Assembly: GCA_965215265.1 (NCBI GenBank)
Contig: OZ244048.1
Coordinates: forward strand, 2,141,743 to 2,205,742
Length of the DNA: 64,000 nucleotides
DNA from: Candidatus Poribacteria bacterium
GTDB taxonomy: Bacteria; Poribacteria; WGA-4E; WGA-3G
Reading direction: 5' to 3'
In this document: positions 1 through 41,082 of the stretch, piece by piece
How the letters are laid out: each line of letters begins with the position of its first letter
Numbering within the stretch: position 1 is the first letter of the stretch
The notes under the pieces: model-generated
Told to the model about the DNA's origin: nothing
What the model saw: only the letters and a program-made list of their open reading frames with translations
The model's database searches: none
Translations under genes and position numbers: made by a program

Positions 1-35
1 GGGAAGGCTATCAATTAGAAGATGTTGATACCTAC

Positions 36-425
36 ATGAGCGCATTCTGGGAAGAAGGATTCCTTTACGTATCTGATATGGGAACAGACGGCGATAAAAC
101 GGATGACGTAGAATTTGACGATATTCGCCAAGAGCGCGATGCCGCAATTCGAGTCTTCTCACGGTTCCAAGACATCGAAATTGAACTCTCCCTGCCACCC
201 GAGATAATTATTAACAGAGAAGGCAATCAAGCCGAAGTCCGGAATCACTATCGCATCCAACTGTTTATCGCCGATGGCGAAACCCTTGAAGGCGGATACT
301 CCGGCGTCTACGCAGAGGGCGACAATCTCTTTCTCTTTGAGAAAAGAAAAGACGAATGGCGGATAGTTGAATGGCATGACGAAGCCTTTGATGACGAAGA
401 AATTCGCATCGCCAATAATCTATAG
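36..425 (+). CDS. hypothetical acidic protein; the frame stays open to the window start, so it may be 5'-truncated
   Basis: 129-aa ORF with no in-frame stop upstream of position 36. No recognisable motif. Confidence 0.3.
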   Translation: MSAFWEEGFLYVSDMGTDGDKTDDVEFDDIRQERDAAIRVFSRFQDIEIELSLPPEIIINREGNQAEVRNHYRIQLFIADGETLEGGYSGVYAEGDNLFLFEKRKDEWRIVEWHDEAFDDEEIRIANNL

Positions 426-489
426 CAGCACTTACACACAAGATTATTTTCCCTCGCATGCTTTGTTGAACTTCAATATGGAAACATGA

Positions 490-2001
490 GTGGTCCGGAG
501 CACTCCGCACCACTCTGTTTCTATAGATGACTCAGGTGAATCTGAACTTCAAACCCCAAAGCAGCGCTTTTTTATACTCATGGCACAACAGGAAGAGTCC
601 TTAAACGACTATCTACAACTCATCCGAAAACATGACTTTACCATCTGCCTGAGCCTTCTCCTAGTCTTAGGAACAGCCCTCGTTATTTCCCTTCGATTGC
701 CTAAAACCTATGCAGCTTCAACACTCATGCTACTCGTACAACCCGCTACCACCCCGGCAATCTCATCAACAAACTTATTCCAAACGGTTTTATCGGGCAG
801 CGGAGACTCGCGCGAATTGGAGACGATCACCACACGATTTACAACCGAGTCTATGCTGGCAGCAGCAATCGAAAATCTTGAAGAAAACGGGAACCGTCAA
901 GCTGCATCCATACTTCCACCCATTGGCGCACTCAAACGCAAAGTAAAAGCACAAATATATCCAGATTCCTACTATATTGAATTAGCCTTGGAACTAACCG
1001 AAGCAGAAGGCGGAGCACGCAACGCCGCACTCCTCGTTAATCAACTAGCAGAAGATATGCAGACGCTGAGAACTGAAGATGAAAAAACGAAACTTGTAAA
1101 ACGAAAACAGTTCCTTGACCAAAAACAGAAAGAAATTACTTCCGAACTTGAGAAACACTTAGAAGCCGTTCTCCAATTTGTCAGAGAAAACGGGAGCCCT
1201 GAAATATGGATACCTAAACTCACCAATTTGCTTGAACGACACGCGAATTTGCACGCACAACTTGAGACAACCCAGCAGAACCTCCACCAAACCCAGGCAC
1301 ACATAGTATATTTACAAGAACGCATCCACTTGCTCCCTGAGGAGATACCACTTTCTCAGACTACCTCCTACAACCCTATTTGGCTTTTTCAACAAGAAAA
1401 GTTATTCACATTAGAAACACAACGCAGCGCTGATGAAAAAAAAGTTGGCAAGGATTCATCCGAATTGAAAGGGCTCGATGCCCAAATTCAAGACATCACC
1501 GAAAGAAACCACAACACACCACAAAATGCTACCACCACGACATCCGGGATTTCTCCATATTATACCTATATCCAAAATCGCCTAACCGAATTAATTCCGA
1601 TGCGCGCCCGCTATGAAAATGCTCAAGAACGGATTAAACATGAACTTCGCCGCCTAGATACGCAATTGGAGCAGCTACTAAAACAAATCCCTGAAAACCA
1701 TTCCGTTCTTACCCAATTAAAGGCACGAATTGATAAAATTAATGAATTGAATGAAGAAATCGCAAAACGCGCACTCGACGCAGAAATTTTGAGTGCCGAA
1801 TCAACAGTGACCTCTTCTCAAAATCGGCGCGGCGGCATCGAAATCATCGACCGGGCCGTACCCAGAAAAATACCTATTGCCCCACAACTCAAATTGATCG
1901 TTATCATTGCCGGCGCAGTGGGCTTAGCCTTAGGAACCGCCATTTCACTATTCATTGATTTTACCAGTTCTTCTGATAATCTAAGTAAACGGAACAGATA
2001 A
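490..2001 (+). CDS. polysaccharide chain-length determinant (Wzz/GumC-like, no kinase domain); alternative ATG start at 580
   Basis: N-terminal TM after a short cytoplasmic segment (ICLSLLLVLGTALVISL...LLVQP), a long coiled-coil middle region and a C-terminal TM (LKLIVIIAGAVGLALGTAISLFIDF). This matches PCP-family topology. The 490 start is GTG. Confidence 0.5.
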   Translation: MVRSTPHHSVSIDDSGESELQTPKQRFFILMAQQEESLNDYLQLIRKHDFTICLSLLLVLGTALVISLRLPKTYAASTLMLLVQPATTPAISSTNLFQTVLSGSGDSRELETITTRFTTESMLAAAIENLEENGNRQAASILPPIGALKRKVKAQIYPDSYYIELALELTEAEGGARNAALLVNQLAEDMQTLRTEDEKTKLVKRKQFLDQKQKEITSELEKHLEAVLQFVRENGSPEIWIPKLTNLLERHANLHAQLETTQQNLHQTQAHIVYLQERIHLLPEEIPLSQTTSYNPIWLFQQEKLFTLETQRSADEKKVGKDSSELKGLDAQIQDITERNHNTPQNATTTTSGISPYYTYIQNRLTELIPMRARYENAQERIKHELRRLDTQLEQLLKQIPENHSVLTQLKARIDKINELNEEIAKRALDAEILSAESTVTSSQNRRGGIEIIDRAVPRKIPIAPQLKLIVIIAGAVGLALGTAISLFIDFTSSSDNLSKRNR

Positions 2002-2033
2002 ACTACTTACTTGCATCGAGATAAATAAAAAAA

Positions 2034-2063
2034 TTTACAATTTATCTCAAAATATGGTATAAT
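2034..2063 (+). promoter_or_regulatory. sigma70-type promoter (TTTACA, 18-nt spacer, TATAAT)
   Basis: Exact -10 hexamer at 2058-2063 and a near-consensus -35 at 2034-2039. It points into the GC-rich non-coding island. Confidence 0.5.
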
Positions 2064-2099
2064 ATATAGAAATAAAAGAGTATTAACTTACAGATCGGT

Positions 2100-2640
2100 T
2101 TGTGCAAGTCTTCGCTTCACAGAAAGGCGAGCGCATGCTATCTTGTCAAACATGTCAAAGTCCACACATGACGAAAAACGGGTTTGGCCAACTCACCTAA
2201 CATGTGGAGATAATTCTGTTCTTGGGGCTCGGCGCTTCATGCCCCAAACTGCCATCCCACGCTCCGGCACCGGCCTGCTTCCCAGCAACGCCGCTTCGGG
2301 CGCGCATGCTAAGTGAATTGATGGCTCGCCGGCCCTTGTGCAAACACGGAGAAAGAAAACCGGAAGCGGTACTGTTGCCCGCCCCTGAGCATCTTCACCA
2401 CCGATAACCGTGTGTGCTCGAGAGAAGCCGTGTTATCAGTCGAAAAAAACAGAAACCGAATTTTTAAGCCTGTTTGGCATCAAAGCCGGCCACCCATCGC
2501 CGCGGAACGTGGCCGTCGTGATGTTCAATATACGGAACGCCGCGACACTGCCGCAGTTGTACACATATCCGTTTGATACCGATGAAGGGTGCGTTTCTGT
2601 GAGGACCGCCTACTTCGCGCATAACGGGTAACGTTAAAAC
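2100..2640 (+). other. GC-rich island with no convincing ORF inside a 1.2-kb AT-rich intergenic region; candidate ncRNA or decayed gene remnant
   Basis: There is a sharp composition shift relative to its flanks. It is preceded by the 2034-2063 promoter. The only ORFs are short, frame-discordant and Pro/Ala-rich (2204-2407, 2410-2631). No RNase P, tmRNA or SRP core motifs were seen. Confidence 0.2.
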
Positions 2641-2821
2641 GTTAAATTGTATTCACCGCGGATACGCTGCTACAGCGTAAGAGAATACAAGTTTTTTTCA
2701 ATATCTGCATGCACGGTACCTTTAAGCAAACACCACATTTGGAAATATAGTGCATTTGTGGTATCATGCAATAATAAATTTTTCACATGTACGCGGAAAA
2801 AACTTTTTTTGATAAAAAAAG

Positions 2822-2850
2822 TTGACAGAAAATTGCCGTCGTGCTATATT
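2822..2850 (+). promoter_or_regulatory. sigma70-type promoter (TTGACA, 17-nt spacer, TATATT)
   Basis: Consensus -35 at 2822-2827 and good -10 at 2845-2850. Confidence 0.45.
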
Positions 2851-2958
2851 TAAACACTAAGAACAGTTTTGTGAAAATTTTATCAATTTTGATACTGATT
2901 TTTCTCGAAACGAATCCTTAATTTAGTGGAAGAAACTCACTTTTTGTGCTCGCGCTAC

Positions 2959-2987
2959 TTGAGATTTTGCAGTATCCGGTATATAAT
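2959..2987 (+). promoter_or_regulatory. sigma70-type promoter (TTGAGA, 17-nt spacer, TATAAT), likely serving the 3195 gene
   Basis: Exact -10 at 2982-2987 and -35 at 2959-2964. It would give a ~200-nt leader before ATG 3195. Confidence 0.5.
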
Positions 2988-3194
2988 GGTTCATTAACAC
3001 AAACGAGCACTCTTTATATTTAGTAACGAAACCTTAACGCTTTCCGTTTACATAATATAGTGGTTTCCAACTATTTTTTAAGGTTTTTGTTGGAGTCGGA
3101 ACTGTTGTGTTCGCAGCGATGCCCAGAATTTTCAGGCAGTCGCTTGCAGCTCACATATCCGACTAAATTATTCCCAAGGAGGAAAAATAAAGTA

Positions 3195-6100
3195 ATGAAT
3201 GAGTTAAGACAATCAATTAATGTTTTACTTGTCGTGACCTGTATCTTGAGTAGTTTTGTACTCTACGGTTGTGGGGCGCAAAGCCTAGGTCCGCAAGAAC
3301 CGCTCTTACCAACTATTGAGGGTAGCTCTAAGTTCTCTGCCCGGTTCCAATTAGAAGAAGAACCGCAGTTCTTCTACGATCTATTTGGAAAAGAGCTGCT
3401 TGAAGGAAACGAAGTCTATAACTATCGCGAGCAAAAAGAATTCGACCAGAACGGTGAATTGATTGTAGGTTGGACTGGACAGCTCGATAGTGAAAGATTT
3501 TCCGCACAGCTCGACCGGACGGTATTAACAGAAGATAGTTTCCGAGGGAGATACACGGAATTTGCTATTGGTGATGATATGCGGTTCAAGCCTGCTACGT
3601 TGTTCCCAAACCGGTACATTCTCTATAAAACAGAGTTTGACGGCTTCCGTTGGGACATCTCTTTTTCGCAGGAGCGACATCTATTTACGTTGATTAACTC
3701 CCGTATCTCTAACCCAGCAAGATTAACTGATGCCGCAGCGAACCTCGCACCAACACTCGGCCGACGGAACGGGTTAAACGCGGATGCCGGCACTCGGCAT
3801 ATTGAAAACGCACGCTTGATCGGTTTCAGGGCACAGGGACTCTTAGGCGATATCTTCCGTGTTGGGTTCACCTATGTCAACCTACACAAAGAACACCCCG
3901 AACGCGTTGAGAACCCTCTCATGGGTACCGTCGCCAATACCCCACCTGAAGTCATCTCTGTTGTTTTTCGTGATGATTCTCCAGAAGATAATCACAACGT
4001 CGTTACCCAATTCTCTGGCTACGATGCTAACCTCCATGGAGATAACATCCAGGGCGGTGTCGGTGCTGCCTTCAAATCCATGAAAGCTACCGTCATAACA
4101 CAAGCATTAGAAGAACTCACAGCCGAAGAAATTGAAGAAGGTGTCGAACCGGCAACTCAGCCCGAACAGACGCAAACAATCGATATTTTTGTTGACGACA
4201 TCACGCCTATTGATGTCGGCGGACTTCCATCCGAAATTCGAGACTCCGTTGATGGTGAATGGAAAATCGTAGACGGTTTCAATAAAATGAAATATGATCT
4301 GGTCTTTGCTGACCACGATATTGAACCGCGCACCGTCAAATCCGTGGTCTTTGAGATGATAGTTGCAGGCGATTACAACATCGCTATCATCGGATTCAGT
4401 GACGCAAACAAAGCCGCTGAAGGCGCTGACCCCCTTGTCGAAGAGTGGATTAAAACCGAAGATGGACATATTGAAATGCCATACAGGGATGTCATTCAAG
4501 CACCCGGCAACTACGGACAATCTTCGGATTATGCCAGCAATCGGACAAGTCTTCTCGATAATCCAAGCGACTGGGAAGGAGAAGGAAGACCCCGGAAAGT
4601 CCAATATCGTTACGGCGCAGCACGCGCAGCACTTCTCTACGGACTTGATCTCGAAGGAACCATCGGGAATGTCTTCGTCCGAGCACATTATTCCATTAAC
4701 GGGAAATATAAGCAGTATCCTACTTTGCCCAAAGACAAAGTCGGTTTTAGTCGGCTCAAAACCACAATTATCACGGACAATGGTGAAGAAGAAACCGGCA
4801 TATCCATAGATCCGGCCACAGGACTGCCTCTAGACCGGAACGGCATACCGACCTACTCAGAAACCGAAGGCGAACGGTTTGAAGCAAGGTTGGGCGGAGA
4901 CGGAAGCGATGAAACCGGCGATGGCGAACTCGGAAGAGAAACTGCCTGGTTCGTACAGCTTAAATCACGATTCGGTAAACTCTACCTTGAAGGTGTTTGG
5001 TACCATATTGACCCAGGATATACCACCACCTATCTCAACTTCGGTTCAAACACCGATAGAGACCAGACATATTCACTGGAACGGACACCTGAATCACAAT
5101 CAGAAGAAGACCCCTGGGATGAAACCAATTACGCTCTCATTGAAGATGACGATGATGATGACGACTGGCCCGATGACATCGACTTTGATGGAGTACTACC
5201 ACGAGCCGATGACAGAGACCAGAACGGGATTTTGGACTTCCAAGAAGACTTCCTAATCTTTGATGCAGATCCGCCGGTCTTTACCGACCTGGTTGACTTG
5301 AACAACAACGGTACTATTGATTCCCTCGAAGATGACTTTGAACCACAATATGAATACGGAATTGACCGCGCCGGCTACCATGTCTTCGCCGAGTACGATC
5401 TACTCGACAACCTTTCTCTCAAAGTGGGGTGGCTCAACGAAGACGAAGTCTCCAGCCGACGACAGAATGATTCCAAATATTTGCACGTCACTTACCAACG
5501 TGACATTCCAGATTTTGGAACGATCCTCTTCCAAAACCGATTCGTCCGGGTTAACGACGATATTCCAGATTACACAATCACTCTCCGGGTCGGTGAATTG
5601 GACCCCGTTCAAATCTCTGACGAACTTGACTTCTACAACGCGCGGGTCAATACCACAACTCTTCAGTTCCTCTATACCGCTATACCCAACTTAACCCTTG
5701 AAGCAAAGTTTCTCGTGGTTTTGCAACATCAGTACGAACAAGATGAGGAAGGCGCTATCTTCCTCGATGTTGAGGGATCCGGTGATGAAAATGATCCGCT
5801 TAACGCAGATCAACGCGTTGACTTCATGGTACCTATCGAACAGGTTCGAGCCTCCGGCGAGAAACGGGAATATCCATTCTATCCTGACCACGGAATTAAC
5901 GCCCTTGATCCGGAAGATCCCGGACTTATCTATGACTCCGAAAACTGGAAGAAACGACGCTATCCAGAACGGGATATTCGCAACCAGCAGACTATTCTCA
6001 AAGCAAGATACGAAATCCCGCTCGGAGATCTACCCTTTGTTGATAAAATCGGTGAGGACTTAACCCTCACCCCCATGGTTAAATATATTTGGGATCGTGC

Positions 6101-6521
6101 CTTTGACCGCGGGGCCGAAGAAATCCCGGAATCGCTTAACCCGCGTTTGTTCGTCCCTACGGATGAAGAACCTGTTGGATACCTCCGATTCAATCGCCGA
6201 AGCCGGGAGGATGTCCTCGGTGTCCGCCTAGATTACCAGTTCACACAAAGAATGAACATCCTCGGCGGATTCCAGTACCGGAAATTTACCAACCGAGACG
6301 ATAACTTCAAAAACTATTTGGGGAACTTCCCGGAAGATGAAGACGTACCGATCCTCTTCCGCCCGGACCTGCGGACCCGAATCTTTGAAATCCAAGCCAT
6401 CAACCGCGGCGAATGGCTCGGTTTTAACATTGTTATCCTCGCAGGTTACAGACGAACCACCATCCTCCTTGAACATACAACCAGTAACACTACGTTTGTT
6501 CGAGCGATGATGGGTTTCTAA
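3195..6521 (+). CDS. giant (1108 aa) secreted, highly acidic outer-membrane-type beta-barrel protein with EF-hand/dockerin-like Ca-binding loops; family unknown
   Basis: RBS AAGGAGG 3176-3182 precedes ATG 3195. Signal/lipoprotein-like N-terminus (LLVVTCILSSFVLYGCGAQS). D7 run and DxNxNGxID / DxDxNGxxD loops (DLNNNGTID, DRDQNGILD). Alternating beta-strand pattern and a terminal aromatic (…AMMGF-stop) are typical of OMP barrels. No TonB box or plug motifs were seen. Confidence 0.55.
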   Translation: MNELRQSINVLLVVTCILSSFVLYGCGAQSLGPQEPLLPTIEGSSKFSARFQLEEEPQFFYDLFGKELLEGNEVYNYREQKEFDQNGELIVGWTGQLDSERFSAQLDRTVLTEDSFRGRYTEFAIGDDMRFKPATLFPNRYILYKTEFDGFRWDISFSQERHLFTLINSRISNPARLTDAAANLAPTLGRRNGLNADAGTRHIENARLIGFRAQGLLGDIFRVGFTYVNLHKEHPERVENPLMGTVANTPPEVISVVFRDDSPEDNHNVVTQFSGYDANLHGDNIQGGVGAAFKSMKATVITQALEELTAEEIEEGVEPATQPEQTQTIDIFVDDITPIDVGGLPSEIRDSVDGEWKIVDGFNKMKYDLVFADHDIEPRTVKSVVFEMIVAGDYNIAIIGFSDANKAAEGADPLVEEWIKTEDGHIEMPYRDVIQAPGNYGQSSDYASNRTSLLDNPSDWEGEGRPRKVQYRYGAARAALLYGLDLEGTIGNVFVRAHYSINGKYKQYPTLPKDKVGFSRLKTTIITDNGEEETGISIDPATGLPLDRNGIPTYSETEGERFEARLGGDGSDETGDGELGRETAWFVQLKSRFGKLYLEGVWYHIDPGYTTTYLNFGSNTDRDQTYSLERTPESQSEEDPWDETNYALIEDDDDDDDWPDDIDFDGVLPRADDRDQNGILDFQEDFLIFDADPPVFTDLVDLNNNGTIDSLEDDFEPQYEYGIDRAGYHVFAEYDLLDNLSLKVGWLNEDEVSSRRQNDSKYLHVTYQRDIPDFGTILFQNRFVRVNDDIPDYTITLRVGELDPVQISDELDFYNARVNTTTLQFLYTAIPNLTLEAKFLVVLQHQYEQDEEGAIFLDVEGSGDENDPLNADQRVDFMVPIEQVRASGEKREYPFYPDHGINALDPEDPGLIYDSENWKKRRYPERDIRNQQTILKARYEIPLGDLPFVDKIGEDLTLTPMVKYIWDRAFDRGAEEIPESLNPRLFVPTDEEPVGYLRFNRRSREDVLGVRLDYQFTQRMNILGGFQYRKFTNRDDNFKNYLGNFPEDEDVPILFRPDLRTRIFEIQAINRGEWLGFNIVILAGYRRTTILLEHTTSNTTFVRAMMGF

Positions 6522-6530
6522 ACTGTTTGT

Positions 6531-6567
6531 GGTTTGCTAGACACGATTTCTTCGTGTCTAGCAAACC
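6531..6567 (+). terminator. strong stem-loop (15-bp perfect stem) 10 nt after the stop of the 3195-6521 gene
   Basis: ggtttgctagacacg-atttctt-cgtgtctagcaaacc. There is no clear U-tract, so it is a terminator or processing hairpin. Confidence 0.5.
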
Positions 6568-6668
6568 AGATTCTAAACAAAACGCGTAACTTTCTTATAC
6601 TAGTGGTGTTCATATAGGTAAAGTTTGCTAACTAAACCTATCTCACGCTCAAAATGGAAATATAACAG

Positions 6669-7382
6669 ATGGTCCGGGCTTGTTTAGTTTTTTTCATTCT
6701 ATTAACCGTCTCTTTGGGGATGTGGAACCTTATCGCACAAACCCAAGAAACACATGTTGAAAACGTTGAAAACGGAGTTGTGCGGGGTTACATTTCCGAT
6801 ATAACACGGCAACAATCACCGATTGCCAACGTTCACGTGACACTCACACGGCTTGAACCAGACTTCGAGACGACAACCAACGCGAAGGGCGAATTTGAGC
6901 TCACCAATTTAGCACCCGGACGCTACGTTGTTACTCTGAGTAAAGATGACTACGACCGGGGGATTGTACAACTTGTAACCGTTGTGAATAGGGGAGAGCA
7001 GTATGTCACACTTAAAATGGGCCCAGAGGCGATAGAAAACGTCCCAATTCCGGAAAAGATTCGCACGCCGGTACCAAAAAATGGCGGCACCGTCCGTGGG
7101 CAAATTGTGGATACATCAACCGCCCAAAACCCTATTCCTGACGTGCGTGTCGTCATTGCCAGCCAAGATGGCGAATATGAAGCGACAACAGATGCAAATG
7201 GCGAGTTTGAACGCACTGGTGTCCCCGCAGGACGCTACTTGATTAGTATCTATAGAGAAGGATACGGAGATCGCGAAGGCAAACCCGTAACCGTCGTGAA
7301 TGGCGGCGAGCACTATATTCCACTCAAGATGACTCAAAAATTCTCTTTTTTCCAAAAATTGGGAAAGGTCTTCGGTTTTTAA
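6669..7382 (+). CDS. secreted protein with two tandem carboxypeptidase-regulatory-like (CarboxypepD_reg, transthyretin-like) domains
   Basis: Signal peptide. Two ~80-aa repeats with the pattern G.VRG.I.D....PI..V.V.........T.T.A.GEFE...PG.Y......GY. The second repeat is nucleotide-identical (98%) to the N-terminus of the next gene. Confidence 0.55.
   Translation: MVRACLVFFILLTVSLGMWNLIAQTQETHVENVENGVVRGYISDITRQQSPIANVHVTLTRLEPDFETTTNAKGEFELTNLAPGRYVVTLSKDDYDRGIVQLVTVVNRGEQYVTLKMGPEAIENVPIPEKIRTPVPKNGGTVRGQIVDTSTAQNPIPDVRVVIASQDGEYEATTDANGEFERTGVPAGRYLISIYREGYGDREGKPVTVVNGGEHYIPLKMTQKFSFFQKLGKVFGF
7082..7333 (+). repeat. 252-bp segment 98.4% identical to 7693-7944 (copy 1, inside CDS 6669-7382)
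   Basis: Direct reading comparison gives 4 mismatches over 252 nt at an offset of 611 bp. Confidence 0.9.
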
Positions 7383-7603
7383 CTTTAAATTACAGATAGT
7401 TGGACCTGTCTTGATAGGAGGGGCCACTACAATCTATTCTCCTACAATGGCGTGGGAGAACCTGAATAATCAACCCTGAAAAAAAGCGTAACTTCTTAGT
7501 GTCTCAGGTGTTGATAGATACAAAACTTGTTAGGAATACGAGGGCATACTTGTCCGATTCGAGAACTTTACTAACAAGTTACCTAAAGGAGGAAACAGTC
7601 CGA

Positions 7604-8599
7604 ATGAAACGTTTAAGTTTAATGTTAATGTTAGCTGCCTGTATCGGAATGTCCGCTGGAATCGTCTTTGCACAAGATGACATTGCCAGCAGTGGCGGCA
7701 CCGTCCGTGGGCAAATTGTGGATACATCAACCGCCCAAAACCCTATTCCTGACGTGCGTGTCGTCATTGCCAGCCAAGATGGCGAATACGAAGCGACAAC
7801 AGATGCAAATGGCGAGTTTGAACGCACTGGTGTCCCCGCAGGACGCTACTTGATTAGTATCTATAGAGAAGGATACGGAGATCGCGAAGGCAAACCTGTA
7901 ACCGTCGTGAATGGCGGTGACCACTATATTCCACTCAAGATGACCAAGAAAGACAATATCGTCTCCTTCTTCATGAAGTTCGGTTTCGTCTTCTGGCCCT
8001 TGGCTCTTTGTTCCGTCACAGCACTCACCTTCATTATTGAACGGCTCTTCACGTTCGTCCGAAGCCGTTCACGTATCGGCACCGAACAGTTCATCGCAAA
8101 CATCGCGGATTCTTTGCGGAAAGAGAATATCATGGAAGCCGTTTCAATCTGTGAAGAAGCAGGCGGACCCCTCGCCAACGTGCTTAAAGCAGGGCTCCTG
8201 CGTTACAGCCAAGCCCAGATTGAAGAACGCGACATTACCAAAGAGGAAATTCAGGAAGCGATTGAAGAAGCAAGCCTCCTTGAAATACCCGAATTGGAAA
8301 GAAATCTCCCTGTATTGGGAACAGTTGCAGTGGTTTCGCCCCTATTCGGTCTGCTCGGAACAGTCACTGGTATGATTAGTGCATTTACAACTATTGCACT
8401 TGAAGGTACGGGAGACCCGCAGCAGCTCGCCGGTGGTATCTCACAGGCTCTCCTCACGACTGCTGCAGGCCTAACAGTCGCTATTCCATGCCTGATCTTC
8501 TTCCAACTCTTTGATAGCTGGGTTAACAGGCACATGGTTGAGATTTCTCAGGTCTCCACTGAAATTGTTAACCAATTGGTTGTTGGTGAAGGGTCGTAA
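7604..8599 (+). CDS. exbB: MotA/TolQ/ExbB-family proton channel with an N-terminal signal peptide plus CarboxypepD_reg-like periplasmic domain (unusual fusion)
   Basis: RBS AAAGGAGG 7586-7593. The C-terminal 230 aa are a classic ExbB/TolQ (…LGTVAVVSPLFGLLGTVTGMISAF…AGGISQALLTTAAGLTVAIPCLIFF…). The N-terminal 110 aa are signal plus the GTVRGQIVD…GEFE…PAGRY…GY domain. Confidence 0.8.
   Translation: MKRLSLMLMLAACIGMSAGIVFAQDDIASSGGTVRGQIVDTSTAQNPIPDVRVVIASQDGEYEATTDANGEFERTGVPAGRYLISIYREGYGDREGKPVTVVNGGDHYIPLKMTKKDNIVSFFMKFGFVFWPLALCSVTALTFIIERLFTFVRSRSRIGTEQFIANIADSLRKENIMEAVSICEEAGGPLANVLKAGLLRYSQAQIEERDITKEEIQEAIEEASLLEIPELERNLPVLGTVAVVSPLFGLLGTVTGMISAFTTIALEGTGDPQQLAGGISQALLTTAAGLTVAIPCLIFFQLFDSWVNRHMVEISQVSTEIVNQLVVGEGS
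7693..7944 (+). repeat. 252-bp segment 98.4% identical to 7082-7333 (copy 2, inside the exbB-fusion CDS)
   Basis: See copy 1. Confidence 0.9.
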
Positions 8600-8625
8600 T
8601 GTCTATCCCTTGGAAGGGGCGAGTG

Positions 8626-8649
8626 GAAACCACTCGCCCTACCCTTAAA
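8626..8649 (+). promoter_or_regulatory. 10-bp stem-loop between exbB and exbD (gggcgagtgg-aaac-ccactcgccc); possible attenuator or processing site
   Basis: Perfect inverted repeat with no U-tract. Confidence 0.35.
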
Positions 8650-8666
8650 CAAATGGAGATTTTGAA

Positions 8667-9116
8667 ATGCAACAACTCGCTGAAGGCAAATTGAACATGC
8701 TTGCAAATAAAATTAAGGAACGCAAGGCACCAACCCTCAGCATGGCACCGATGATTGATTGTGTCTTTCTACTCCTAATTTTCTTCATGGTTTCAACAAC
8801 CTTCTCACCCATTCCAGGGCTCCGGGTACAGCTCCCACCGCCAGGGAAACCGTCTCCGGATAAACCGAAAGGGCTCACCGTCAGAATCGCTAACCCGGAA
8901 CCAGGTGAGAGCAGAGGCACCATGGTCCTGAATGACGAGGTCGTTCAACTTGAGGAAATGTTTACGCAATTCATCAACGCCCCAGAAGAAGCAACGAGCA
9001 TGTTGATTATCCAATCTGAACGCGACGTACTTCATGAACAAATTGTACAAGTTATGGATATTGCTAAACAAGCAGGTATTGATAAAATCGGTTTTGCTAT
9101 TGTCGCCCGAGACTGA
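8667..9116 (+). CDS. exbD: biopolymer transport protein ExbD/TolR
   Basis: RBS GGAG. The hallmark N-terminus is MAPMIDCVFLLLIFFMVSTTF with a single TM. Confidence 0.8.
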   Translation: MQQLAEGKLNMLANKIKERKAPTLSMAPMIDCVFLLLIFFMVSTTFSPIPGLRVQLPPPGKPSPDKPKGLTVRIANPEPGESRGTMVLNDEVVQLEEMFTQFINAPEEATSMLIIQSERDVLHEQIVQVMDIAKQAGIDKIGFAIVARD

Positions 9117-9163
9117 ACCTATACACTCGGCGACACTGACACTTATAGGAAAGGAGAATTCCA

Positions 9164-9586
9164 ATGGCTTTGAACATTTCCCGAAACCGGAATAAGGACG
9201 AAGATGAAGATATTCCGATGGCACCCATGATTGATTGTGTGTTCTTGCTATTAATTTTCTTCATGGTCTCTGCTATTATGCGGGTTCCCCCACCTTTCAC
9301 GGTGACGCTCCCGGATTCCTCTACGCAACATGAATTCACGCGAAAGAAGTACAATCTTTTCATCAGCAGCGACGGCCGCGTCTCAATTGACGATCAGGAA
9401 ATGCTCACCCTGGAGGACATGGAGATGTTCCTATCTGCCCATGAAAACCAGATCAGCACCTTGATTATCAAGGCAGATAAACGTGCAAAACACGGCGTTG
9501 TCATTGACGTGGTTGAACGCGCGAAAATGCGCTCCAGTAAAACGGAGGGACTTGAAGTCGCTTTCGCAGTGTCTGAAGAAGATTGA
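9164..9586 (+). CDS. exbD: second ExbD/TolR paralog
   Basis: RBS AAGGAG. It has the same …IPMAPMIDCVFLLLIFFMVSA… motif. Confidence 0.8.
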   Translation: MALNISRNRNKDEDEDIPMAPMIDCVFLLLIFFMVSAIMRVPPPFTVTLPDSSTQHEFTRKKYNLFISSDGRVSIDDQEMLTLEDMEMFLSAHENQISTLIIKADKRAKHGVVIDVVERAKMRSSKTEGLEVAFAVSEED

Positions 9587-9606
9587 ACGGCAAACTGAAT
9601 CAGAAA

Positions 9607-9634
9607 AAGGCAGCATCGGCTGCCTTTTTTTTTG
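9607..9634 (+). terminator. rho-independent terminator of the exb operon
   Basis: aaggcagc-atcg-gctgcctt followed by T9. Confidence 0.8.
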
Positions 9635-9686
9635 CACGCTTGTGCCACCGAAAAAGGCGTAACCTGCTAAACACTAGATATGGTAA

Positions 9687-9800
9687 TTATTAATTATCGC
9701 CGCGGAACCAGATGTGTACCACGAACAGATTGTGCAGGTTATGGACATCGCCAAACAGGCTGGAATTGATAAGGTTGGGTTTGCTCTCGTAAAACAATGA
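9687..9800 (+). pseudogene. remnant of a third exbD: only the C-terminal ~37 codons remain (LLIIAAEPDVYHEQIVQVMDIAKQAGIDKVGFALVKQ-stop)
   Basis: It aligns residue-for-residue with the C-terminus of ExbD 8667-9116 (MLIIQSERDVLHEQIVQVMDIAKQAGIDKIGFAIVARD). An in-frame stop lies immediately upstream at 9684-9686. There is no start or RBS. It sits between two terminators. Confidence 0.6.
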
Positions 9801-9806
9801 GTGCGG

Positions 9807-9840
9807 TACACAAAATAGGGCGAGCACTTGTGTCTCGCCC
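9807..9840 (-). terminator. rho-independent terminator of gltB (minus strand)
   Basis: gggcgag-N9-ctcgccc followed on the minus strand by UAUUUUGUGU, 15 nt past the gltB stop. Confidence 0.65.
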
Positions 9841-9854
9841 ATACGCTCTCCTGA

Positions 9855-12800
9855 TTACCGTTTCCGCCGTTTGCGCCGCGGATTTTTTCTCTCAAGCTGA
9901 GCCGGTGGAGGGCTCGGGGGTGGTGGTGCAACAACTTTTCGGAATTGCGGGAGAAAAACGTCCCAATTGGCGATAATCTCTTGGGCGCGGCAGCTACCCG
10001 TTAATTCGGCATGCTCCCGAATTAGTGTACTAAGCGTTTCAATATCCGCTTTTGACGTGATATTTTCTAGCTTAATCAATTCCAAGTTGCATTTTGTTTG
10101 GAATTCTCCACTTCCATCAAGTACGTACGCGGTTCCACCGGTCATGCCAGCCCCAAAGTTGCGTCCCGTTTCTCCAAGAATCACGACAATTCCTGCTGTC
10201 ATATACTCACAACCGTGGTCGCCGACACCTTCTACCACTGTCGTGGCCCCACTATTCCTGACACAGAATCGCTCACCCGCCCGTCCGGCGGCGTACAACT
10301 TCCCGCCTGTTGCCCCGTACAATACCGTATTCCCGATGATAGTATTTTCATGGCTCCGGAATTGCGCGGCTGCTGACGGTTTGATGACAATCTCCCCGCC
10401 TGCCATACCTTTTCCGACATAGTCATTCGCTTCACCGATAAGCGACAATTTCACCCCATGGATACAGAATGCGCCGAAACTCTGACCTGCACTGCCAACG
10501 AAACTGCACTGAATTGTCGCATTAGGCAGCCCCTCGTCTCCATAAAACTTCGCGATTGTCCCAGATAACTTCGCTCCGACTGTACGGTGTATGTTACGAA
10601 TTGCGTATGACAACTGAATCGGTTCTTTGTCTCTAATCGCCCTCTCTGCATCCATCAAAATTTGGTCATCAAGTGGCGTATCTTCCCGGTCATTCCGTGG
10701 CTGTAGGTGATACCGGGGCTGTTTCCCTGTCGGATCGGCAGGTGTCAGAATTTCGCTCAAATCAAGCATAGTGGCTTTCGGATACTCGGATAGATTCTTC
10801 CGTTCAAGCAATTCCGGTCTGCCGATAACCTCGTCCAGCGACCTGTACCCGAGATTCGCCAAAATTTCTCTCACTTCATTCGCGACACCGAGCATGAAGT
10901 TGACAACCATTTCCGGCGTGCCGGGGTACTTCGCACGAAGTCCCGGATCCTGCGTCGCGATACCTACCGGACATGTGTTTAGATGACACTGACGTGCCAT
11001 AATGCAGCCTGTGGCTACCATCGCTATTGTGCCAAAACCGTACTCTTCGGCACCCAACATCGCCGCCATGACGATATCCCTACCGGAACGCATCCCGCCA
11101 TCAACACGTAACACGACACGGTCACGCAGTTCGTTTGCAACCAGCGCACGTTGCGTTTCTGCCAGCCCGAGCTCCCACGGTGTACCCGCATTTTTGATCG
11201 AACTGAGCGGCGATGCACCGGTCCCCCCCTCATGCCCACTAATTTGAATCACATCGGCATACCCCTTCGCTACCCCAGACGCAATCGTTCCAATTAAGAA
11301 CTCAGAGACCAGCTTAACAGCAACTTTTGCATCTGGATTCGCCTGCTTCAAGTCATAGATGAGCTGCGCCAGGTCCTCTATTGAATAGATATCGTGGTGC
11401 GGCGGAGGGGAAATCAGGGGTACGCCGGGAACCGAATGGCGGATCGCAGCGATTTCCTCTGTGACTTTATGCCCCGGAATCTGCCCACCTTCCCCAGGTT
11501 TTGAGCCTTGTGCCATTTTGATTTCTAGCTCTTTTGCTGATGCGAGATACGTCGGTGTTACGCCAAAACGTCCCGAGGCGACCTGCTTCAAGGCACTAGA
11601 CGCAAGATCGCCGTTAGCCCTCACCTTATATCGCGCGCTATCTTCGCCACCCTCACCACTTCCGGATTTCGCACCGAGACGGTTCATCGCTATAGCCAAG
11701 GTTTCGTGCGTTTCACGGCTCAGTGCACCAAAAGACATACTACCTGTCGTAAAACGGCGAACGAGCTGCTCTGCAGGTTCTACCTCTTCAATTGGAACCG
11801 GGGCACCCGGCTTAAAGTCAAGCAGCTCCCGTAAACTAGAAGGCTCCCCATTTTCAACGGCAGCGACATATTTTTCATAATCTTCTGATTTGCCTGCTTT
11901 CACAAAGCGGTGGAGTGATTTAAACACTGTCGGATTATACGCATGGAATTCGCCATTCCTGCGGAAGCGGAAATGCCCGGCTTCTTCAAGGGAGTCAGTC
12001 CCATCATGGCCTGAAAACGCCTTCGTATGAAAATGGAGCGTTTCGGCAGCGATATGCTCAAAGCCTATACCGCTTAAGCGCGAGGCAGTCCCGGTAAAAC
12101 ACCTATCGATTACTTCCGGATGGATACCGATTGCCTCAAAAATTTGAGCACCGCGATAGCTTGACACAGTCGAGATACCCATCTTCGCCATAATTTTCAG
12201 AATCCCTTTTTCCACAGCTGCCTTATAATTGGCAACTGCTTCACCGGCTGTAAGTCCATCCAGTTCATCGTTTTCCGAGAGCTCCGCAATCGTAGAAAAA
12301 GCAAGATACGGATTAATAGCATCTGCCCCATAACCGAGCAGTACAGCAAAATGGTGTTCTTCCCGCGGGTCCCCGGCTTCAGCTATCAGACTCGCTTGCA
12401 TCCGTTTGCCTTCACGAATCAAGTGATGATGTACAGCACCCACGGCGAGTGCCATCGGAATCGGGGCAAGTGCTGCATCTACCGTTTTATCGCTCAGGAC
12501 GAGGAGTACCTTACCAGCTCCAATTTCAGTTGACGCACGTTGACAGAGTTGCTCTAACGCAGCTTCTAATCCTTGTATACCCGAGGCAACGGGGAAATGG
12601 ATAGGTAAGGTGGCGACTTGAAATTCAGGTAAATTCTGCGTTCGCAACGCGTTTAATTCTTCGTTTCCCAACACCGGAGAGGAGAGACGAATTAAACGCG
12701 CGTGCTCTGCTGTTTCAGTCAGCAGACTGCCACGTCGCCCCATATAAGTCGTTAGCGACATCACCAAACGTTCCCGCAGTGAATCAATCGCTGGATTCGT

Positions 12801-14387
12801 TACCTGAGCGAAACGTTGTTTAAAATAGCTATAGAGCATCCGTGGATGCCGGGAAATCGCCGCCGGCGGTGTATCATCACCCATAGAACCGACTGCCTCT
12901 TTCTTCAAAGCTATCATCGGTTTAATGAACCGTTCGACATCCTCTGTTGTGTAGCCAAACGCTTTCTGCGATAGTGCCAGCCGGGCAGGCACGTCTTCTG
13001 ATTGGATAGACGGGGCGGCTGCGTTTCGATCAAGCAATCTTTTCAGCGGAGTTATACCCTTCCGAACCCACTCCGTGTAGGGTTTTTGCTGCACGACGCT
13101 CGCTTTTATCTCTGAATCTGTCAACAATCTACCGTTAACGGTATCAACCGCAATCATCTGTCCAGGACCCAAACGTCCCTTCTTGACCACCTGTCTATCG
13201 TCTAATTCAATAATGCCTACCTCAGAACCCATCACTACAATATCATCGTCGGTTACCTTATACCGGGCTGGACGCAACCCATTTCTATCTAAACTAGCAC
13301 CGACAACAACCCCATCTGTAAAAGCAACAGCTGCCGGACCATCCCACGGTTCGCTGACACAAGATAGGTACTCATAACATCCCTTCAACGTCTCAGGCAT
13401 ATCCGGAATCTGCTCGTATGCTTCTGGAATCAGACACATCATGGAATGGAGAATACTTCTACCAGAGTGCCGCAGGAGTTCTAACACGTTATCCAGACTC
13501 ATAGAGTCACTTCCCTGTGGACTGATGACGGGTACCAATTTCCGTATCCGTTCTTTCCAGATAGGCGATTTCAGATCCGCTTCTCGTGCCCTCATCCAAT
13601 TGCGATTCCCCATCAACGTGTTAATCTCACCGTTATGCGCCAGCATTCGGAACGGCTGTGCAAGATTCCAAGTCGATGAAGTATTTGTACTATAACGTTG
13701 ATGGAAAACAGCTAATCCTGCCTCAAAGTCCGAGTTTTGTAAGTCCGGATAGAAGTGTGACAGCTGCGGGGCTACCAATAAGCCTTTGTAGACAATCGTT
13801 CGATGCGAAAAAGAGGCAACGTGAAATTCTTCTAATTCTGCTTCAGCGATGCGCTGCTCCAACTCTTTGCAGATAAGATAGAGCTCCTGTTCAAATACTT
13901 CAGCCGGGAGATGGTCAGGCCTTCCCATCAGCACCTGTTGAATATCGGGCAATGCTGCCAACGCTTTGTCGCCAATAGCATTAACGTTTATAGGGACTGA
14001 ACGCCATCCAAGGTGTGGGATACGGTGCTTCTGTAATATTTTTTCAATGAGTGCACGTCCGTGTACTTGTGCATTCCGATCCTGCCCCGGTAGGAAAATC
14101 ATCCCTACACCCAGATCCTTAATTGACTCAAGGTGTACACCCTGTTTTTCAATTTCTTTGCGAAATAGTTTATCCGGAATTTGGGTTAAGAGCCCGGCAC
14201 CATCCCCGGTCTTGGCATCCGCTGCTACCGCCCCACGGTGCGTTAAATTTGTCACCGCTTGTATGGCCATCTTAATAATCTCGTGGCTCCGAGCTCCTGA
14301 GCGGTTTGCAACAAACCCTACGCCGCAGGCATCTTTTTCCTTTAAATCATTATACATCTGTAAACTGATTCTCCATCCTTTCTTCAA
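9855..14387 (-). CDS. gltB: glutamate synthase large subunit (Ntn-amidotransferase, central, FMN and GXGXG domains)
   Basis: 1510 aa. N-terminal …DACGVGFVA… Cys nucleophile context, FMN-binding and C-terminal GXGXG regions. An alternative start lies 10 codons in. There is no gltD in the window. Confidence 0.9.
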   Translation of the reverse strand: MKKGWRISLQMYNDLKEKDACGVGFVANRSGARSHEIIKMAIQAVTNLTHRGAVAADAKTGDGAGLLTQIPDKLFRKEIEKQGVHLESIKDLGVGMIFLPGQDRNAQVHGRALIEKILQKHRIPHLGWRSVPINVNAIGDKALAALPDIQQVLMGRPDHLPAEVFEQELYLICKELEQRIAEAELEEFHVASFSHRTIVYKGLLVAPQLSHFYPDLQNSDFEAGLAVFHQRYSTNTSSTWNLAQPFRMLAHNGEINTLMGNRNWMRAREADLKSPIWKERIRKLVPVISPQGSDSMSLDNVLELLRHSGRSILHSMMCLIPEAYEQIPDMPETLKGCYEYLSCVSEPWDGPAAVAFTDGVVVGASLDRNGLRPARYKVTDDDIVVMGSEVGIIELDDRQVVKKGRLGPGQMIAVDTVNGRLLTDSEIKASVVQQKPYTEWVRKGITPLKRLLDRNAAAPSIQSEDVPARLALSQKAFGYTTEDVERFIKPMIALKKEAVGSMGDDTPPAAISRHPRMLYSYFKQRFAQVTNPAIDSLRERLVMSLTTYMGRRGSLLTETAEHARLIRLSSPVLGNEELNALRTQNLPEFQVATLPIHFPVASGIQGLEAALEQLCQRASTEIGAGKVLLVLSDKTVDAALAPIPMALAVGAVHHHLIREGKRMQASLIAEAGDPREEHHFAVLLGYGADAINPYLAFSTIAELSENDELDGLTAGEAVANYKAAVEKGILKIMAKMGISTVSSYRGAQIFEAIGIHPEVIDRCFTGTASRLSGIGFEHIAAETLHFHTKAFSGHDGTDSLEEAGHFRFRRNGEFHAYNPTVFKSLHRFVKAGKSEDYEKYVAAVENGEPSSLRELLDFKPGAPVPIEEVEPAEQLVRRFTTGSMSFGALSRETHETLAIAMNRLGAKSGSGEGGEDSARYKVRANGDLASSALKQVASGRFGVTPTYLASAKELEIKMAQGSKPGEGGQIPGHKVTEEIAAIRHSVPGVPLISPPPHHDIYSIEDLAQLIYDLKQANPDAKVAVKLVSEFLIGTIASGVAKGYADVIQISGHEGGTGASPLSSIKNAGTPWELGLAETQRALVANELRDRVVLRVDGGMRSGRDIVMAAMLGAEEYGFGTIAMVATGCIMARQCHLNTCPVGIATQDPGLRAKYPGTPEMVVNFMLGVANEVREILANLGYRSLDEVIGRPELLERKNLSEYPKATMLDLSEILTPADPTGKQPRYHLQPRNDREDTPLDDQILMDAERAIRDKEPIQLSYAIRNIHRTVGAKLSGTIAKFYGDEGLPNATIQCSFVGSAGQSFGAFCIHGVKLSLIGEANDYVGKGMAGGEIVIKPSAAAQFRSHENTIIGNTVLYGATGGKLYAAGRAGERFCVRNSGATTVVEGVGDHGCEYMTAGIVVILGETGRNFGAGMTGGTAYVLDGSGEFQTKCNLELIKLENITSKADIETLSTLIREHAELTGSCRAQEIIANWDVFLPQFRKVVAPPPPSPPPAQLERKNPRRKRRKR

Positions 14388-14658
14388 ATTTCTTTTTTTG
14401 TCTATTAAAGCGGTAAGGCGAGTTTTACGTGAAGTCTCCTGTGCCTATCTCACCAGAGCAGTTAAATCAAGGGGCGAATGTGCAGATCGCATCCCGCCGG
14501 CTTTTTGCTTAGTACGCCGTATGCTTATATCTTCATTCTCATCGCTTGGCAGGCTTGCATGTTGGGGGACCGTTTTACGCGTGTGAATAGAGGCAAAATT
14601 ATACTTTTTAAATATTATACCTTAATTTACACCAAAAGTCAAGAACATTTCAATGCTT

Positions 14659-39515: not shown

Positions 39516-40148
39516 ATGAAAAAACTCGAACGCGTTTTTTTGCTATCCGTAATACTCCTCACCGTATCTACAGTAGCGCTTGCAGCAACCGCAAATAATG
39601 ACGCTAACGCCCGTATTGACGACAAGAAACCTCAACAGGCACAACCGCTCGTCCCCGGTTATACTACTGATAAACCGCAAAGTGAGTCGACGACGTACCC
39701 GCTCTTTCGGACGCATGCACAGCGGTTTTATCCAGAATTGGACATCCAAAAAGCGACTCGGTTATCAATGTTCATGCCCGGCTTAGGACAAGCGTACGCC
39801 GGCAACTACAGCAAAGCCACCCTTTTTCTTGCATCGGAATTGGGAGCCTTCGCACTCGCAGGCTATAACATCGCTCGCGCACTGCATTACAACGCCCAGG
39901 ACGGTTTCGAAACAGGATTCCAAGATTCGCGAATCGGTGAATTCTTAACCGCCGACCAGGCACGCGTGCGTATGAGGGACCACACCCTCTTTGGGGGGCT
40001 TTTTCTCCTCACCGGCATCGGCATCCATGTATGGAATATCCTCGACGCACCCAAAACAGCAGATGCATATAATAATCGAAGATTTTCCCTGCAAATGCTA
40101 CAAACAGAGAGTGGGATACGTTCAATTATTTTTACGCAACGATTCTAA
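39516..40148 (+). CDS. hypothetical secreted protein
   Basis: Signal peptide MKKLERVFLLSVILLTVSTVALA. RBS AAGGAAG. Family unknown. Confidence 0.4.
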   Translation: MKKLERVFLLSVILLTVSTVALAATANNDANARIDDKKPQQAQPLVPGYTTDKPQSESTTYPLFRTHAQRFYPELDIQKATRLSMFMPGLGQAYAGNYSKATLFLASELGAFALAGYNIARALHYNAQDGFETGFQDSRIGEFLTADQARVRMRDHTLFGGLFLLTGIGIHVWNILDAPKTADAYNNRRFSLQMLQTESGIRSIIFTQRF

Positions 40149-40203
40149 TCGCACTTTTTCTTTACACGTGTAGTCGAAACACGCAGATTGGAGACTGTTA
40201 AAG

Positions 40204-41082
40204 ATGCCTTATCCTAAGCAATTAACACGGATTTTTTACGGCTTAATCGCCGCAAACCTAATTGTGACTATTGGCGCGCTCGCACAGCAAAAAACCGGAA
40301 CACGCGATGATGTTTTGACCAGTCTCGTTCAAACTGAAAACATCTCACCTGCACCCTTTCAGGTAGGCGAAAAATTCACTTACAAAGTCAAAATCCGCAG
40401 ACTACCCGCAGGAAAACGCACCGACCTGGTCGTCAAAAAAACACAATTGAACGGGAAAAACGTCTATCATATCCGATCCGAGGCAAAAACCCATTCTATT
40501 TTTAGACTTTACCACTTCCGCAATCAGCAGGAGACTTTTTTACAACGCAGCACACCGCTAACCGATATGGAAAAAGAGAGCACATCATCCACACAAAAAT
40601 GCAGCCGACTCCCCGGGCTCTCGCCAGTCCGATTCCAGAACCGGATCGAAGACCGGAAATATCGCGCAACCGTCACAGCAAATTTCGGCATAGACGACGC
40701 TATCGAATATCAGAAAACTTCGCGGTTAAATCCAAAATCACCACAAAAACGCGAAACAAAAGTACTCTCCATGCCCAACGGAACACAAGATGAACTCTCT
40801 ATGCTCTATTTTCTACGCAGCAAAAAACTCGCTATTGGGAAAACCTATTTTTTCCCGCTCTTGGCTCAGGGAAAGATCGTCAAGGTTAACATCACCGTCC
40901 AACGTAGAGAATCTCTCAAAACAAAGGTATTAGGGACGGTTAAAACCCTCGTACTGCACGCCTCAAACGGGTCACAACTCTGGTTGACAGACGACACACG
41001 ACGCATACCTGTCAAAATTGAAGCGCAAAGCAAGATTGGAAAAATGGTAGCCAATCTAGAAAAGGTAGAATTTGCAAAATAG
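40204..41082 (+). CDS. hypothetical secreted protein
   Basis: N-terminal signal-like helix. 292 aa. Family unknown. Confidence 0.4.
   Translation: MPYPKQLTRIFYGLIAANLIVTIGALAQQKTGTRDDVLTSLVQTENISPAPFQVGEKFTYKVKIRRLPAGKRTDLVVKKTQLNGKNVYHIRSEAKTHSIFRLYHFRNQQETFLQRSTPLTDMEKESTSSTQKCSRLPGLSPVRFQNRIEDRKYRATVTANFGIDDAIEYQKTSRLNPKSPQKRETKVLSMPNGTQDELSMLYFLRSKKLAIGKTYFFPLLAQGKIVKVNITVQRRESLKTKVLGTVKTLVLHASNGSQLWLTDDTRRIPVKIEAQSKIGKMVANLEKVEFAK

Follow-up and report, generated by a model that had tools for sequence, protein, structure and literature searches.

A putative proton-driven envelope system in Poribacteria: an ExbB-ExbD-ExbD motor beside a plug-less giant outer-membrane barrel

Introduction

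In this article, we focus on a gene cluster in a 64-kb stretch of DNA (contig OZ244048.1, hereafter the window) from a sponge-associated Poribacterium; the named close homologues of its genes all come from Candidatus Poribacteria. On the plus strand, between positions 3195 and 9800, sequence and open reading frame (ORF) analysis finds five genes and one relic, with gltB converging from the minus strand. They are gene A, for a giant acidic protein; gene B, for a secreted protein with two carboxypeptidase regulatory-like (CarboxypepD_reg) domains; gene C (exbB), in which such a domain is fused to an ExbB/TolQ-type channel; two exbD genes; and a decayed third exbD. Pfam and ORF checks agree with this gene set, as it had been given in a preliminary description of the window. 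We propose, with about even chances of being right, that the cluster is the poribacterial version of a phylum-spanning, Ton/Tol-like envelope system that is driven by protons and dedicated to a giant barrel without a plug, and that the CarboxypepD_reg beta-sandwich would serve as a docking or regulatory crown. The main argument for a functional link between A and the motor is that the association of ExbB-ExbD1-ExbD2 with barrels of the A family appears to be older than the phyla in which it is found.

The locus, including the fusion, was already published by Jahn et al. in 2016 as a conserved poribacterial "BMC-A region" (PMC5087111), so that neither the locus nor the fusion architecture is new. 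The same authors localised ExbD* to the cell membrane and proposed that vitamin B12 is taken up in a TonB-dependent way (PMC5087111), an assignment that rests solely on the ExbB/ExbD annotation. What is new here is the placement of A in a large barrel family that has no Pfam model, the synteny across phyla of these barrels with a tetratricopeptide repeat (TPR) protein and ExbB-ExbD-ExbD without TonB_C, the TonB-like DUF4159 proteins, and the anatomy of a local duplication and decay.

The 5:2 motors of the ExbB/TolQ/MotA type are now viewed as general rotary engines, and to our knowledge TonB, TolA, the flagellar motor proteins and GldM are the only cases in which the route from motor output to outer membrane is known. 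A barrel family of several hundred members, tied repeatedly to a distinct ExbB-ExbD-ExbD module without TonB_C, is thus a testable candidate for a further type of coupling, and its occurrence in Gemmatimonadota, a phylum with cultured members, opens it to experiment.

A barrel family associated with an ExbB-ExbD-ExbD module

An exhaustive HMMER search for relatives of protein A returned 281 cluster representatives (157 at E <=1e-10), and the full-length members of the family, of 850-1150 aa, are 21-28% identical to A over the whole length. None of the ten distant members tested carries a significant Pfam domain, Plug and TonB_dep_Rec included; one distant member shows a weak SlpA_C match (E 3e-4), below the cut-off. 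When species-representative genomes were scanned with a 14-sequence alignment of the family, 428 relatives were confirmed. They belong mainly to Latescibacterota, whose genomes hold several loci each, with as many as three tandem barrels, and the others are found in Gemmatimonadota, Zixibacteria, Handelsmanbacteria, Neomarinimicrobiota, Zhuqueibacterota and a metagenome-assembled genome (MAG) of Planctomycetota.

The families of neighbouring genes were clustered in 79 loci, and their representatives were scanned against Pfam. A recurring layout emerges, which starts with a ~317-aa protein, a barrel, a ~259-aa lipoprotein and a ~218-aa protein. It continues with a ~552-aa protein that ends in a FlgD_ig/CHU_C-type domain, as in the C-terminal domains (CTD) of the type IX secretion system (T9SS), a ~286-aa small barrel with weak FadL/PorP similarity, and a second barrel, and it ends with a ~1050-aa N-terminally anchored TPR protein, ExbB, ExbD, ExbD, a lipoprotein and a SurA-like peptidyl-prolyl isomerase (PPIase). 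ExbB directly follows the TPR gene in 16 of the 35 loci with a complete TPR gene and enough flank, and the loci with this arrangement are labelled Latescibacterota, Gemmatimonadota, Zixibacteria, Zhuqueibacterota and Neomarinimicrobiota, together with a Cytophagia-labelled MAG.

In most of the remaining loci of these 35, the TPR gene is followed by the ~259-aa lipoprotein family, which in some is preceded by a ~420-aa DUF4159 protein. These proteins (L048:16868-18097, L024:14884-16152, L005:4611-5948 and 29 further loci) consist of an N-terminal transmembrane (TM) helix, often with a His, a basic and proline-rich linker and a C-terminal DUF4159, which is a TonB-like layout with a different head. 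They adjoin the TPR gene and in some loci also ExbB/ExbD. In the literature, the one mention of DUF4159 is in a Pfam database paper and not in a functional study. No TonB_C was found among the recurrent neighbour families scanned, and none of the ExbBs that adjoin A-family barrels in other phyla carries a CarboxypepD_reg domain.

The motor genes of these clusters are related to those of the window. The poribacterial ExbB core is 38% identical to the ExbB of a Gemmatimonadota cluster, in a gapless alignment of 129 bits, and in distant clusters the first ExbD matches ExbD1 and the second ExbD2, an order that is kept across phyla. Judging from these similarities, the ExbB-ExbD1-ExbD2 module and its tie to the barrels appear to predate the divergence of the phyla concerned, and the link between barrel and ExbBD that had been suggested from the window alone thus extends, by synteny, across phyla. 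One Latescibacterota A-family locus (L044:17340-18446) encodes a single 369-aa protein in which MotA_ExbB and ExbD are fused.

Protein A as a predicted outer-membrane barrel

Gene A (3195-6521, plus strand) encodes a 1108-aa acidic protein (pI 4.4, with 202 D+E against 107 K+R) that we predict to be an outer-membrane lipoprotein with a giant beta-barrel. It has no match in Pfam, NCBIfam or PADLOC, hence neither a Plug nor a TonB_dep_Rec domain, and it is, as first described, no recognisable TonB-dependent transporter. The Pfam scan likewise gave no SLH match and no OmpA-like peptidoglycan-binding domain, and a profile search of the PDB returned nothing meaningful, its sole match being EcoR124, by chance.

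Several features assign A to the outer membrane. A lipobox, L/F-Y-G-C, is present in 121 of 121 poribacterial homologues and is followed by a highly conserved peptide, GAQSLGPQEPLLPTIEG..., which is disordered in the AlphaFold2 (AF2) model. At the C-terminus, ...FVRAMMGF forms a typical beta-signal with a final aromatic residue, and the AF2 model, built on a 72-sequence alignment (pLDDT 71.5, pTM 0.74), shows long antiparallel strands throughout. In this model, the barrel begins at about residue 58 and has ~26-28 strands, counted as DSSP strands of at least 7 residues with the 303-465 insert removed. A thus models as an outer-membrane beta-barrel and not as a soluble sandwich, in keeping with its first description. 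Solved barrels such as SlpA of Deinococcus (7zgx) and LptD (5iv9) are 12% identical to A, a likeness common to all barrels, and A lacks the SLH domain of SlpA as well as the N-terminal jellyroll and the LptE partner of LptD.

The barrel carries large inserts (303-465, 507-582, 605-725 and 846-926) at alternate strand connections, which, counting back from the C-terminus, should face the extracellular side. The 605-725 insert holds the hallmark motif of the family, LVDDNDDxDxxPD...GVFPGxDEDxDGxPDxNxNxN..PDYxEPFL..DP..F.YG.D.NNNG.ID.REND..PDYPY, which is D/N-rich and strongly conserved. The EF-hand/dockerin-like calcium loops noted before correspond to this conserved motif, which no calcium-binding Pfam model matches; binding of Ca2+ by this insert is plausible from its DxDxDG-like pattern.

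In the single amplified genome (SAG) 3G, the orthologue of A is the 3402-bp hypothetical protein 2265142944 (PMC5087111 supplement). We rejected the "COG5422 RhoGEF-like outer-membrane protein" of Jahn et al. as a candidate for A, as the supplement shows it to be a ~530-aa upstream gene.

The fused motor protein and its beta-sandwich

Gene C (7604-8599, plus strand) encodes 331 aa, which Pfam, AF2 and Foldseek divide into a signal peptide (residues 1-24), a CarboxypepD_reg domain (residues 32-113; nt 7697-7942) and a TolQ/ExbB core (residues 119-331; nt 7958-8596). The two domains match PF13620 (E 1.6e-14) and MotA_ExbB (PF01618, E 3.5e-32), the latter being a channel with three TM helices, while the N-terminal domain reaches 29.7 bits against PF13715 (CarbopepD_reg_2), under the cut-off of 32.2. 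The fusion is not a local artefact, since PF13620 and PF01618 occur together in 120 of the 120 best homologues, at 68-90% identity. In the AF2 model, a signal helix (2-28) is followed by the beta-sandwich (32-113) and by the TM1 helix from residue 119. Foldseek superposes the C-terminal 210 residues onto TolQ/ExbB chains with TM-scores of 0.70-0.75, and the N-terminal domain onto the transthyretin-like domain of carboxypeptidase D.

The channel core falls below the NCBIfam equivalog cut-offs for both ExbB (74.7 vs 206 bits) and TolQ (105 vs 221 bits), and is slightly nearer to TolQ; the TolR equivalog gave 50 bits against a cut-off of 127. Matches of the core to solved ExbB/TolQ proteins reach ~50-55 bits.

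The position of the sandwich bears on what it may do. In BLASTP against an unfused ExbB, residue 119 of C is the first to align, opposite residue 6 of the partner, so the linker between sandwich and TM1 is ~5 residues long. Because an 80-residue domain that sits so close to TM1 cannot span the periplasm, the sandwich would, on this geometry, merely decorate the periplasmic mouth of the inner-membrane stator. Among 50 poribacterial orthologues, the channel is almost invariant, and the sandwich, preceded by a variable acidic tail, is far more variable. The fusion is conserved within Poribacteria but not outside, where the homologous motors lack the sandwich. As homologous ExbBs stand beside A-family barrels in other phyla without this domain, the sandwich is not the conserved coupling device.

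Extra N-terminal parts are known from other motor proteins, and Vibrio TtpC is an N-terminally extended ExbB-type protein. The ExbB of Serratia marcescens (PMC9008036) has, like C, a cleavable signal peptide followed by additional N-terminal sequence in the periplasm, but its extension is short, whereas the poribacterial one is a folded 80-residue transthyretin-like domain. The N-terminal extension of SusC-like proteins and the CP domain of PorE share the fold class and the periplasmic location, and have been discussed as contact points for TonB-type transducers (PMC12204202). These domains are nevertheless placed on outer-membrane components, while the poribacterial one sits on the inner-membrane stator and belongs to PF13620, not PF13715.

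ExbD genes, gene B and local decay

The two ExbD proteins (ExbD1, 149 aa, 8667-9116; ExbD2, 140 aa, 9164-9586; both on the plus strand) match PF02472 (2.9e-23 and 5.3e-24) and keep the membrane Asp in the motif MAPMIDCVF; the essential membrane Asp of E. coli ExbD is D25. No second ExbB or further ExbD was found in the window beyond the relic, which spans 9687-9800 on the plus strand and consists of the last 37 codons and the stop of a third exbD. It translates to LLIIAAEPDVYHEQIVQVMDIAKQAGIDKVGFALVKQ*, with 28 of 35 residues identical to the C-terminus of ExbD1. In the relatives L084 and L085, this site is occupied by an intact third exbD, and the window has therefore lost one exbD.

Gene B (6669-7382, plus strand; 237 aa) codes for two PF13620 domains (E 2.6e-28) behind a signal peptide. 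Bases 7082-7340 of the gene share 97% identity with bases 7693-7951 of gene C, and its residues 135-235 are 88% identical to residues 27-130 of C, a similarity that reaches into the start of TM1. An upstream element, GCGTAACTT-N-AGGTGTTGATA, was duplicated along with the gene (copies at 6584 and 7486). Gene B is 100% identical to P0391 and absent from all the relatives examined (L001, L003, L084 and L085). Its sequence marks B as a recent and partial tandem duplication, specific to this lineage, in which the exbB 5' end is joined to an older copy of the domain, and these duplication signatures, together with its absence from the relatives, mean that it is not a conserved component.

Free-standing single-domain CarboxypepD_reg paralogues of 144-150 aa are common in Poribacteria, and the one context that was examined is an unrelated neighbourhood. 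A double CarboxypepD_reg protein, 40% identical to gene B, also lies inside the nuo (complex I) operon of another poribacterial lineage (L087:8001-8702).

Conservation within Poribacteria

The poribacterial gene order reads PduL, a ~250-aa protein, a ~520-aa protein, DUF5683, a 186-aa protein and GNVR/Wzz, then a gap, and then A, the fusion, ExbD and ExbD. This order, including A-exbB-exbD, is held down to 69% ExbB identity. We considered the upstream genes (~250 aa, ~520 aa, DUF5683, 186 aa, GNVR) as counterparts of the neighbours found in other phyla, but no match was obtained, and the barrel alone is shared. The poribacterial lineage that diverges most (L085:9833-11743 and the P0113 loci) has three exbDs and, behind them, genes for a 190-215-aa lipoprotein and two Laminin_G_3 proteins, which the lineage of the window lacks.

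Transcription and regulation

The whole set had been described as one probable operon running from a promoter at 2959-2987 to a terminator at the 3' end. The terminator is present: at 9602-9634 (plus strand) a GC stem of -17.8 kcal/mol is followed by 9 U. The promoter-like site at 2959-2987 does exist (11/12 match) but is not conserved, and the conserved promoter lies instead at 2822-2850. This plus-strand, sigma-70-like site (TTGACA-17-TATATT, TG-extended, 11/12 match) is nearly invariant in L084, L001 and L003, so in four lineages with the window, and it is followed by a ~345-nt leader (2851-3194, plus strand). In the alignment of the four lineages, the leader contains conserved blocks and ends in a Shine-Dalgarno AAGGAGG before gene A. 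It may be a regulatory 5' untranslated region; an Rfam search of bases 1-16000 gave no match.

Right after the stop codon of A, a 17-bp hairpin (6531-6567, plus strand; -31.5 kcal/mol, no U-tract) is present in all lineages compared, with the paired substitutions TAGACACG/CGTGTCTA, TGGACACG/CGTGTCCA and GGGCACG/CGTGCCC. Jahn et al. reported that BTP-ExbD-ExbD* is transcribed at a high level as a single polycistron, with no reads covering either flank (PMC5087111). Because of this conserved hairpin and these coverage gaps, the data argue for two transcription units, A and exbB-exbD-exbD, both at similarly high levels, and a single operon is doubtful. Relative to housekeeping genes, expression in SAG 3G was 3.0x for A, 4.9x for the BTP fusion, 2.6x for ExbD and 3.3x for ExbD*, with 0.5x for the neighbouring gltB (PMC5087111). 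A, the fusion, ExbD and ExbD* are among the most highly expressed poribacterial genes in the sponge, and their cargo is likely central to the physiology of the symbiont.

The element GCGTAACTT-N-AGGTGTTGATA stands at 6584-6620, ahead of gene B, and at 7486-7520, ahead of exbB; in relatives, the spacer between A and exbB holds one or two copies. It may serve the exbB operon as a promoter or operator.

The search for TonB

As first described, no TonB is encoded in cis. A search with E. coli TonB (phmmer) and a scan for proline-rich ORFs, together a weak test, found no TonB-like ORF in the cluster or the window, and none was found within +/-10 kb of the locus in poribacterial relatives. Two TonB candidates 3' of exbD in relatives (L017, 264 aa; L085, 190 aa) were rejected, being lipoproteins that lack a Pro-rich spacer. 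A TonB_C gene in trans is nonetheless annotated in at least one poribacterial genome: for SAG 3G, another contig is listed with a 954-bp gene (pfam03544) named "TonB family C-terminal domain" and expressed at 0.65x housekeeping (PMC5087111 supplement). TolA, TolB, Pal and CpoB domains were not found in the cluster genes by Pfam, the rest of the window having been only partly scanned.

How the motor may be coupled to the outer membrane

If the cluster is indeed a proton-driven system dedicated to A, the motor would form the usual 5:2 stator, and proton flow would drive a conformational or rotary output to the barrel. This output would gate or power the passage of large substrates through a pore that has no TonB-type plug. 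Five CarboxypepD_reg domains would crown the stator at its periplasmic mouth, falling short of the outer membrane, and this crown could dock or regulate a periplasmic partner, which may be the ExbD C-terminal domain, a TonB-like protein encoded in trans, or the disordered N-terminal peptide of A. In the other phyla, the role of a partner that spans the periplasm probably falls to the ~1050-aa anchored TPR protein, to the DUF4159 protein with its TM helix and basic/Pro linker, or to both. Local duplication and decay would account for gene B and the exbD relic.

Known systems offer partial precedents. With TonB-ExbB-ExbD, the module shares the ExbB/TolQ-fold channel, the ExbD membrane Asp and the link to a large barrel family that is expanded in some genomes; it differs in having no TonB in the locus, a barrel of ~26-28 rather than 22 strands without a Plug or a recognisable TonB box, and a sandwich on ExbB. 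With Tol-Pal, it shares a channel core slightly nearer to TolQ and, in other phyla, a TPR protein beside the motor, but TolA, TolB and Pal were not seen, and the TPR partner of those phyla, at ~1050 aa, is not CpoB-sized. A similar arrangement is that of the TPR-ExbB-ExbD-ExbD-TonB clusters of FCB type (for Fibrobacteres, Chlorobi and Bacteroidetes), such as FSU_2400-2403 of Fibrobacter succinogenes, in which one ExbB is also followed by two ExbD paralogues; this operon is induced by cellulose and has been discussed together with TPR envelope proteins (PMC6851124). It ends in a TonB-family gene, whereas the A-family clusters end in a lipoprotein or a DUF4159 protein and have A-family barrels before the motor; the poribacterial locus, for its part, lacks both the TPR and the TonB genes.

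Several observations weigh against a motor dedicated to A. The regulatory signals of A and of the exbB operon are separate in Poribacteria (the hairpin and the published coverage gaps flanking BTP-ExbD-ExbD*); the TPR and DUF4159 genes found with the module elsewhere are missing from the poribacterial locus; ExbB does not adjoin the barrel in about half of the A-family loci that could be evaluated, and many paralogues stand alone; and 257 residues of the barrel model of A are below pLDDT 50.

The single, highly conserved and highly expressed copy of Poribacteria fits a housekeeping role, and the expansion of paralogues in Latescibacterota, along with their pairing with carbohydrate-binding proteins that carry a T9SS-type CTD, fits either the uptake of large substrates or the handling of surface proteins. 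A bolder form of our proposal, which we put forward tentatively and would back only about one time in four, holds that the A family is a new class of outer-membrane conduits that depend on the proton motive force without the TonB_C/TonB-box handshake. The dedicated ExbB-ExbD1-ExbD2 motor would then act through non-canonical transducers, namely giant TPR and/or DUF4159 proteins in Latescibacterota, Gemmatimonadota and allies, and in Poribacteria a sandwich crown that captures the N-terminal peptide of A or an ExbD domain. If so, the frequent T9SS-type-CTD partners of the barrels would point to a Ton-like handling of surface proteins or large glycans.

An ordinary Ton motor is unlikely, though the least unlikely of the rival explanations. 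Here, as in the vitamin B12 proposal of Jahn et al., ExbB-ExbD would energise a canonical TonB and plug-containing transporters encoded in trans, A would be unrelated, and the sandwich would be a lineage-specific decoration like the extension of Serratia ExbB. The pfam03544 gene of SAG 3G, the seemingly separate transcripts of ExbBD and A, and the precedent of N-terminally extended ExbB proteins (PMC9008036) all speak for it. Against it stand the synteny of the A family with a specific ExbB-ExbD1-ExbD2 clade in several phyla, the scores of the C core under both equivalog cut-offs, and expression levels of 3-5x housekeeping for A and the motor genes against 0.65x for the TonB gene.

We find it rather improbable that the motor serves a Tol-like maintenance of the envelope, stabilising or tethering the outer membrane through an abundant barrel in the manner of SlpA- or OmpM-type barrels, with a crown that would bind peptidoglycan or a periplasmic partner. 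TolA, TolB and Pal were not seen in the locus, A carries neither an SLH nor an OmpA-like peptidoglycan-binding domain, and the paralogues of Latescibacterota, with up to three in tandem and several loci per genome, resemble a transporter family and not a tether.

A role in polysaccharide export, in which A would be the outer-membrane conduit for the product of the upstream Wzz/GNVR co-polymerase and the motor would assist, is very unlikely. Between the GNVR gene and A lie 0.56-1.2 kb that hold a conserved promoter of their own, none of the upstream poribacterial genes goes with A-family barrels in other phyla, whose A-family loci largely lack polysaccharide genes, and the locus has no OPX/Wza, flippase or polymerase gene.

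Finally, the coupling first suggested for this cluster, in which the ExbB-fused CarboxypepD_reg domain replaces TonB and physically connects the motor to A, would explain the lack of TonB in cis, the conservation of the fusion in all poribacterial orthologues and the conserved, disordered periplasmic peptide of A as a docking motif, but it is very unlikely, and the least probable of these readings, given the ~5-residue linker, the absence of the domain from the modules of other phyla, its fast evolution, its free-standing paralogues in unrelated loci and the TonB_C gene listed elsewhere in a poribacterial genome. We reject a defence system (MotAB-like, as in Zorya, or others), with zero matches to PADLOC models among the five cluster proteins.

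Other features of the window

Directly 3' of the GNVR gene, the stretch 2034-2820 starts with a strong promoter-like site (TTTACA-18-TATAAT) that is conserved in two relatives. The ~750 nt that follow are GC-rich and partly an insertion when compared with relatives, with no ORF above 73 aa and no Rfam match, and they may be a non-coding transcript or gene debris. Further downstream, a second DUF5683 protein and a DUF3108 protein are encoded at 39516-41082; in relatives, DUF5683 is also part of the conserved block 5' of gene A. The gene for a 1357-aa protein (48939-53012) comes after mfd and three SurA-like PPIase genes (45191-48849); this protein has PPIC-type PPIase domains and a weak LptD_2-like region, and together they form an unusual, chaperone-rich envelope locus.

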